NCBI RefSeq assembly: GCF_016026235.1
Contig: NZ_CP065613.1
DNA: 64,000 bases
DNA from: Escherichia coli
GTDB lineage: Bacteria > Pseudomonadota > Gammaproteobacteria > Enterobacterales > Enterobacteriaceae
Reading direction: 5' to 3' (one strand)
The notes under the pieces were generated by a model, which was given only the letters and a program-made list of their open reading frames with translations, was not told where the DNA came from and searched no databases. The position numbers were made by a program, and so were the translations under genes. This document shows positions 52,174-53,166 of this stretch, in pieces; positions within the stretch are counted from its first letter, which is position 1; each line of letters begins with the position of its first letter.

Positions 52174-53166
52174 TTACTCGCGGAACAGCGCTTCGATATT
52201 CAGCCCCTGCGTTTGTAGGATTTCGCGCAAACGGCGCAGGCCTTCAACCTGAATCTGGCGAACACGTTCACGGGTGAGGCCAATTTCACGACCTACATCT
52301 TCCAGTGTTGCCGCTTCGTACCCCAGCAAACCGAATCGACGTGCCAGTACTTCACGCTGTTTGGCGTTCAGCTCGAACAGCCATTTGACGATGCTCTGCT
52401 TCATATCGTCATCTTGCGTGGTATCTTCCGGACCGTTCTCTTTTTCATCGGCCAGGATGTCCAGCAACGCTTTTTCGGAATCACCACCCAGCGGGGTGTC
52501 TACCGAGGTAATGCGCTCGTTAAGACGAAGCATACGGCTGACGTCATCAACTGGCTTATCCAGTTGCTCTGCGATCTCTTCCGCACTTGGTTCATGGTCC
52601 AGCTTATGGGACAACTCACGTGCGGTTCACAGGTAAACGTTCAGCTCCTTTACGATGTGAATCGGCAAACGAATAGTACGGGTTTGGTTCATAATCGCCC
52701 GTTCAATCGTCTGGCGAATCCACCAGGTTGCGTATGTTGAGAAGCGGAAACCACGTTCCGGGTCAAACTTCTCTACCGCGCGGATCAGCCCCAGGTTGCC
52801 CTCTTCGATAAGGTCCAGCAACGCCAGACCACGATTGCCATAACGGCGGGCAATTTTTACCACCAGACGCAAGTTACTCTCGATCATCCGGCGGCGAGAG
52901 GCGACATCTCCACGCAGTGCGCGACGCGCAAAATAAACTTCTTCTTCGGCCGTTAACAGTGGTGAATAACCAATCTCACCAAGGTAAAGCTGAGTCGCGT
53001 CCAACACACGCTGTGTGGCTCCCTGCGATAACAGTTCCTCTTCGGCCAAATCGTTATCACTGGGTTCCTCTTCTACTAAGGCCTTTTCGTCAAAAACCTC
53101 AACTCCGTTCTCATCAAATTCCGCATCTTCATTTAAATCATGAACTTTCAGCGTATTCTGACTCAT
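52174..53166 (-). pseudogene. rpoS: rpoS (sigma-S) with in-frame TGA at 52627-52629 (codon 180); predicted product truncated to 179 aa
   Basis: Frame reads [10 protein letters not shown]...[27 protein letters not shown]...ALFRE; the track splits it into 191-aa and 146-aa ORFs. Confidence 0.85.

Follow-up and report, generated by a model that had tools for sequence, protein, structure and literature searches.

Is the rpoS gene of this Escherichia coli strain, whose reading frame is interrupted by a stop at codon 180, a genuine loss-of-function allele, and is the strain without working sigma-S? The locus lies in a 64,000-nucleotide stretch of contig NZ_CP065613.1 (assembly GCF_016026235.1), which was analysed as a whole and is called the window below. 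The sequence-only reading of this DNA had placed a premature TGA at codon 180 (52627-52629) and had proposed an alignment to a reference rpoS. Both the ORF itself and tblastn against RpoS WP_000081550.1 of TUM13936 bore the stop out. On the minus strand, rpoS begins with ATG at 53166 and ends with TAA at 52176-52174, its frame is open beyond codon 180, and residues 1-330 align with zero gaps, the stop, with T at coding-strand position 52629, being the sole difference. As set out below, R180* is real and is probably a null rpoS allele of a well-known kind.

The codon-180 stop and its surroundings

The following features of rpoS and its neighbourhood were recognized in the window.

52174-53166, minus strand: rpoS (sigma-S), 993 nt, collinear with wild type, a pseudogene through one internal stop
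52627-52629, minus strand: premature TGA at codon 180 (R180*, C538T), with the coding-strand T at 52629
52627-53166, minus strand: shortened ORF for a protein of 179 aa, to which the Pfam boundaries leave only sigma regions 1.2 and 2
52174-52626, minus strand: rest of the frame beyond the stop (codons 181-330 and TAA), with the coding sequence for regions 3 and 4
52127-52160, minus strand: hairpin and T-run resembling an intrinsic terminator, just past the rpoS stop
53229-54368, minus strand: nlpD, intact, immediately upstream of rpoS in the conserved nlpD-rpoS arrangement
39850-42411, plus strand: mutS, intact, 853 aa, stop-free
42517-52053, no strand assigned: mutS-rpoS variable segment, all genes intact

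The lesion had been described as a single C-to-T nonsense change and not a frameshift, and this description held, since the gene has the wild-type length of 993 nt, aligns without gaps, and reads CGA at codon 180 in the wild-type reference (L002). The close relatives L014-L023 and L025 also have CGA. The further claim of an exact match to sigma-S up to residue 179 was true for the common E33 form of RpoS, but not in comparison with K-12 MG1655, whose RpoS has Q33 (PMC2700278). A 61-mer centred on C538T and carrying the T was found exactly in one of 5405 complete E. coli genomes, while its C-bearing version was found in 4497 of them. Since relatives with flanks at least 99.9% identical to the window have CGA as well, the sense codon is ancestral and the stop is derived; lying in frame inside a gap-free, collinear gene, it makes this locus a nonsense allele.

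The genes surE, pcm, nlpD and rpoS are collinear with reference genomes. Polarity is not an issue because no operon gene lies downstream of rpoS, and the intact mutS gives no evidence of a mismatch-repair mutator. The location of rpoS beside the variable mutS-rpoS segment, also noted from the letters alone, was recovered, with mutS at 39850-42411 and at least four architectures of the segment among other carriers of R180*. Here the segment contains pphB, ygbI, ltnD, otnK, otnC, ygbM, ygbN, the hydroxyarylic acid decarboxylase D/C/B genes and a MarR-family regulator gene.

Several other features of the window were observed. The pphB protein (42517-43170) is 94% identical to that of TUM13936 while the flanking genes are 99-100% identical, and precisely this variant occurs only within a small lineage (56 blocks); this suggests a patch acquired by recombination at the end of the variable segment nearest mutS. 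In TUM13936 a TOBE-domain gene lies between fhlA and ygbA; the window lacks it (39170-39850). Between ygbA and mutS, a 59-aa hypothetical ORF (39598-39774) carries a stop and shares only 86% identity with the reference, and is probably either no real gene or a variable remnant. Downstream of csrA, a tRNA cluster (466-1189) has three tRNA-Arg(ACG) genes and one tRNA-Ser(GCU), compared with four tRNA-Arg copies in TUM13936 and fewer in a clone-mate assembly (L030); either the copies truly vary in number, or a repeat of about 275 bp has collapsed during assembly. Between iap and cas2e lies a type I-E CRISPR array (63315-63648) of six 29-nt repeats (CGGTTTATCCCCGCTGGCGCGGGGAACAC) with a 61-bp period, and the window ends inside the cas operon (63748-63999).

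The 179-residue product and possible readthrough of its stop

When codon 180 is restored, the repaired RpoS shows Pfam region 1.2 at residues 56-88, region 2 at 94-163, region 3 at 174-248 and region 4 at 262-315. The stop thus lands six residues inside region 3 and only regions 1.2 and 2 remain, in agreement with the earlier claim of a product without regions 3 and 4. The RpoS (sigma-38) equivalog is represented by NF004207 and TIGR02394, and NF004207 has a curated whole-protein cut-off of 394 bits. Against this NCBIfam model the repaired protein scored 604.6 bits, above the cut-off, whereas the 179-aa product scored 340.5 bits, below it. The position downstream of nlpD (pcm-nlpD-rpoS) is that of rpoS, yet the four sigma-70 regions (1.2, 2, 3 and 4) are not present in one polypeptide. 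The locus is rpoS, and its product is an incomplete RpoS.

In the sigma-70 family, region 4 makes the -35 and beta-flap contacts, and regions 3 and 4 hold much of the core-binding surface. Structures of the E. coli sigma-S holoenzyme are available (e.g. 5IPL and 6OMF). The spontaneous C538T transition turns the Arg180 codon CGA into UGA, so that translation terminates early in region 3, and a fragment that lacks region 4 and the greater part of region 3 would have lost the -35, beta-flap and most core contacts. Such a fragment would be unable to build a working sigma-S holoenzyme, and for this reason the strain would be effectively rpoS-null. Such a strain is predicted to have little HPII catalase and glycogen and to survive poorly in acid and in stationary phase. 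An RpoS truncated by a stop at codon 243, in VTEC N99-4390, is already catalase-low (PMC2700278), and by analogy with this longer protein we infer that sigma-S phenotypes would be lost here. Taken together, we consider it very probable that C538T is genuine, that its R180* product is nonfunctional, and that the strain is effectively rpoS-null.

The only serious rival to this reading is leakiness. Under this explanation, Trp-tRNA reads the UGA(A) and a few percent of full-length RpoS(R180W) is made, so that sigma-S is tuned down and not absent. The frame after the UGA is fully intact, as this explanation needs, and UGA is the leakiest stop: at 37°C a K-12 reporter showed about 2% readthrough, and at 25°C 4%, with an increase as the level of tRNA-Trp rises (PMC10570021). 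However, premature termination usually destabilizes the mRNA as well, and since TAG, TAA and TGA alleles made by transitions are about equally common in rpoS, there is no sign of a preference for the leaky UGA. Moreover, the readthrough figures are those of K-12, whose RF2 is poor at UGA termination; wild strains terminate better. We therefore regard a leaky allele as unlikely, and the effectively null allele as the reading to be preferred.

A deliberate use of the stop has virtually no probability: nothing interrupts the half beyond the stop, where gene callers often place a 146-aa ORF, at times from TTG at 52614 and holding Pfam regions 3 and 4, as would suit selenocysteine insertion, programmed recoding or a sigma factor reassembled from separate halves, but the Arg codon is ancestral in thousands of genomes. 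The sequence directly 3' of the UGA is ordinary rpoS coding sequence and not a SECIS-type hairpin, and the downstream RNA was not significantly structured (z = -1.77; 11 of 200 shuffles fold as well). No Rfam family matched near the stop, no suppressor tRNA was found within the window, and neither TTG 52614 nor the next in-frame ATG is preceded by a good Shine-Dalgarno sequence, leaving selenocysteine, suppression and restart unsupported.

Origin and recurrence of R180*

Codon 180 is CGA in every relative with flanks at least 99.9% identical to the window, but several of them bear other rpoS lesions. FDAARGOS_943 (L028, 1971-2964), which is 99.9% identical to the window with an interruption by an IS, shares the rpoS haplotype and has an additional C after nt 357, annotated as 'frameshifted'; it is a culture-collection strain, and we take another near-relative assembly to be NCTC-derived. 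A 7-bp GTAGAAG duplication is found at nt 90 in L018 (GCA_901482675.2, 10529-11528), and L016 (GCA_031665325.1, 10529-11425) has lost 96 bp, in frame, between GGCCGAAGARGAA direct repeats. In the more distant relative L017 (10529-11520) rpoS has a 1-bp deletion at nt 751, and in NCTC9064 an IS1 is inserted in the gene. The relative loci were sampled toward unusual gene neighbourhoods, and the share of broken rpoS among them is not an estimate of its frequency. These sequences show R180* to be a recent tip mutation in a lineage with repeated rpoS hits.

The window carries a second lesion, in yqaB (1-183, minus strand), the gene for fructose-1-phosphate/6-phosphogluconate phosphatase. A deletion of 182 bp inside the gene, whose junction near 72-74 shows microhomology of about 3 bp, throws the sequence out of frame beyond residue 37 and leaves a 50-aa product. 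This deletion was absent from all complete E. coli genomes, including the 100%-identical relative FDAARGOS_943, while the exact 50-aa product was present on 18 public contigs from several submitters, and thus it marks a clone. R180* may have arisen either during storage or in nature. Among natural isolates that had been handled with care, only 2% were without RpoS, through mutations of laboratory origin (PMC3484664), and for the same reason many low-frequency deleterious rpoS variants were expected, and found, in a survey of 60,472 genomes (PMC10401003). A naturally circulating clone may be the source, because R180* is in at least two assemblies and the yqaB-deletion clone comes from several submitters. 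One could go further and suppose that R180* is fixed in this circulating clone with its private 182-bp yqaB deletion and is kept through readthrough sigma-S(R180W), as a stable attenuated natural allele; this we consider distinctly improbable. The sequences show the substitution, the missing domains, the recurrence of R180*, its occurrence in two assemblies and its recent tip position, while its null phenotype, selective cause and place of origin are inferred. Without sigma-S more core RNA polymerase is available to sigma-70 and nutrients are scavenged better, and for this reason loss alleles are repeatedly favoured or tolerated. This trade-off acts in stabs, in chemostats and on poor carbon sources, and possibly in hosts. 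The sigma-competition rationale for rpoS loss has been described (PMC3484664), and selection for rpoS loss on succinate was reported at about 1e-8 (PMC2700278).

The exact 179-aa product (P0001) was found on about 130 public contigs, one of its records being named 'RNA polymerase sigma factor rpoS [Escherichia coli UMEA 3175-1]', and NCTC11151 has the same R180* allele as a RefSeq pseudogene with an 'internal stop'. Among 11 carriers that were fetched, C538T occurred on at least nine rpoS haplotypes, one of them 29 nt distant. The variable rpoS positions that flank it most closely, nt 462 and 549, differ among carriers, their flanking DNA diverges by 1-3%, and at least four architectures of the adjacent mutS-rpoS segment are present. 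Because haplotypes, neighbouring sites, flanks and architectures all vary, R180* has arisen independently many times. The general statement that rpoS loss alleles recur, made in the sequence-only reading, thus applies to this very allele. R180* is not new; it is an ordinary, already catalogued loss-of-function allele. A literature search on the allele as R180 or C538T returned nothing relevant, and a word search of the supplements of PMC2700278 gave no match.

Presence of C538T on many unrelated backgrounds is also what one would expect if codon 180 were a mutational hotspot, for example through deamination of 5-methylcytosine at a Dcm site, and recurred without selection. However, the C538T context is CCTGCGA and not CCWGG, the mutated C is not the inner C of a Dcm motif, and rpoS has Dcm sites only at nt 372, 440 and 711. 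A single base change can create a stop in the gene in 116 ways, 22 of them by transition, and all eleven transition-nonsense products tested, R180* included, occur in public data: W148* on 466 contigs, W149* on 104, Q152* on 109, Q161* on 112, R180* (the present allele) on 130, Q201* on 109, Q251* on 99, Q257* on 124, W262* on 187, Q270* on 158 and R277* on 218. R180* lies inside the range of the ten others (99-466 contigs each), an average count that speaks against a hotspot. With a site outside any Dcm motif and an allele no commoner than the others, we reject the hotspot explanation, which has very little probability, and keep the reading of a spontaneous null allele.

An error of sequencing or assembly, with a true base of C and an intact rpoS, has scarcely any probability. 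The difference is of one base only, but consensus substitution errors are rare and the same T was found elsewhere. One assembly (GCA_002467115.1, contig NJNA01000021.1; L007) is 100% identical to the window across 20.4 kb and has the TGA. Another, deposited separately (GCA_017137435.1, contig AAZDLY010000022.1; L024), is 100% identical across 20.7 kb and has it as well, although these two may be one strain sequenced twice. The exact 179-aa product is also encoded on four further, similar contigs with the same neighbour genes. When about 66 reference genes were projected on the window, all were full-length and stop-free except three, namely rpoS, the hypothetical ORF of 59 aa and, at the edge of the window, yqaB with its 182-bp deletion, and no homopolymer-type frameshift was found in about 64 genes across the window. 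With the T in a second assembly, four more contigs with the product and clean surrounding genes, an isolated assembly error is very unlikely.

General gene decay, or a Shigella-like background, was rejected too: about 64 of 66 genes tested are intact, mutS is intact, and the window shows no IS elements.

Comparison with known rpoS alleles

We suggest that users of this strain treat it as rpoS-defective. Its stress-survival, biofilm (RDAR), catalase and virulence phenotypes would be unrepresentative of its lineage. For general biology the allele adds nothing new and is one more case of the documented rpoS trade-off polymorphism, in a gene for which each of the eleven transition-nonsense alleles tested has already been sampled about 100 times or more in public data.

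The closest known cases are NCTC11151 and UMEA 3175-1, which have the identical base change and the identical 179-aa product. Their rpoS haplotypes are up to 29 nt apart, however, their flanks are 1-3% divergent and their mutS-rpoS architectures are unlike, and because of these differences their alleles and that of the present strain have independent origins. Premature termination of RpoS is also common to the present strain, to VTEC O121:NM N99-4390, with its stop at codon 243, and to the Suc++ mutants (Dong et al. 2009, PMC2700278). In those strains low catalase and selection by growth on poor carbon were measured, whereas the present allele is known from its sequence; its stop comes earlier, at codon 180 as against 243, and region 3 is lost along with region 4.

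In comparison with rpoS nulls of storage and handling (Snyder et al. 2012, PMC3484664; Spira et al. 2011, PMC3240573; Bleibtreu et al. 2014, cited in PMC10401003), R180* is likewise a recent 'tip' lesion. The likeness extends to the near relatives, several of them culture-collection strains, each with a different rpoS lesion. Unlike those nulls, R180* occurs in two or more deposited assemblies, and its strain is a member of the yqaB-deletion clone seen on 18 contigs from several submitters.

The K-12 codon-33 amber and the rpoS819 GASP allele likewise reflect a trade-off between stress protection and nutritional competence. Both are classical rpoS polymorphisms that keep partial activity, the former by restart downstream of codon 33 and the latter with an altered C-terminus. 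Work on GASP is cited in PMC3484664. R180* differs from these two alleles in that region 2 and region 4 could be joined in one protein only by readthrough of the UGA.
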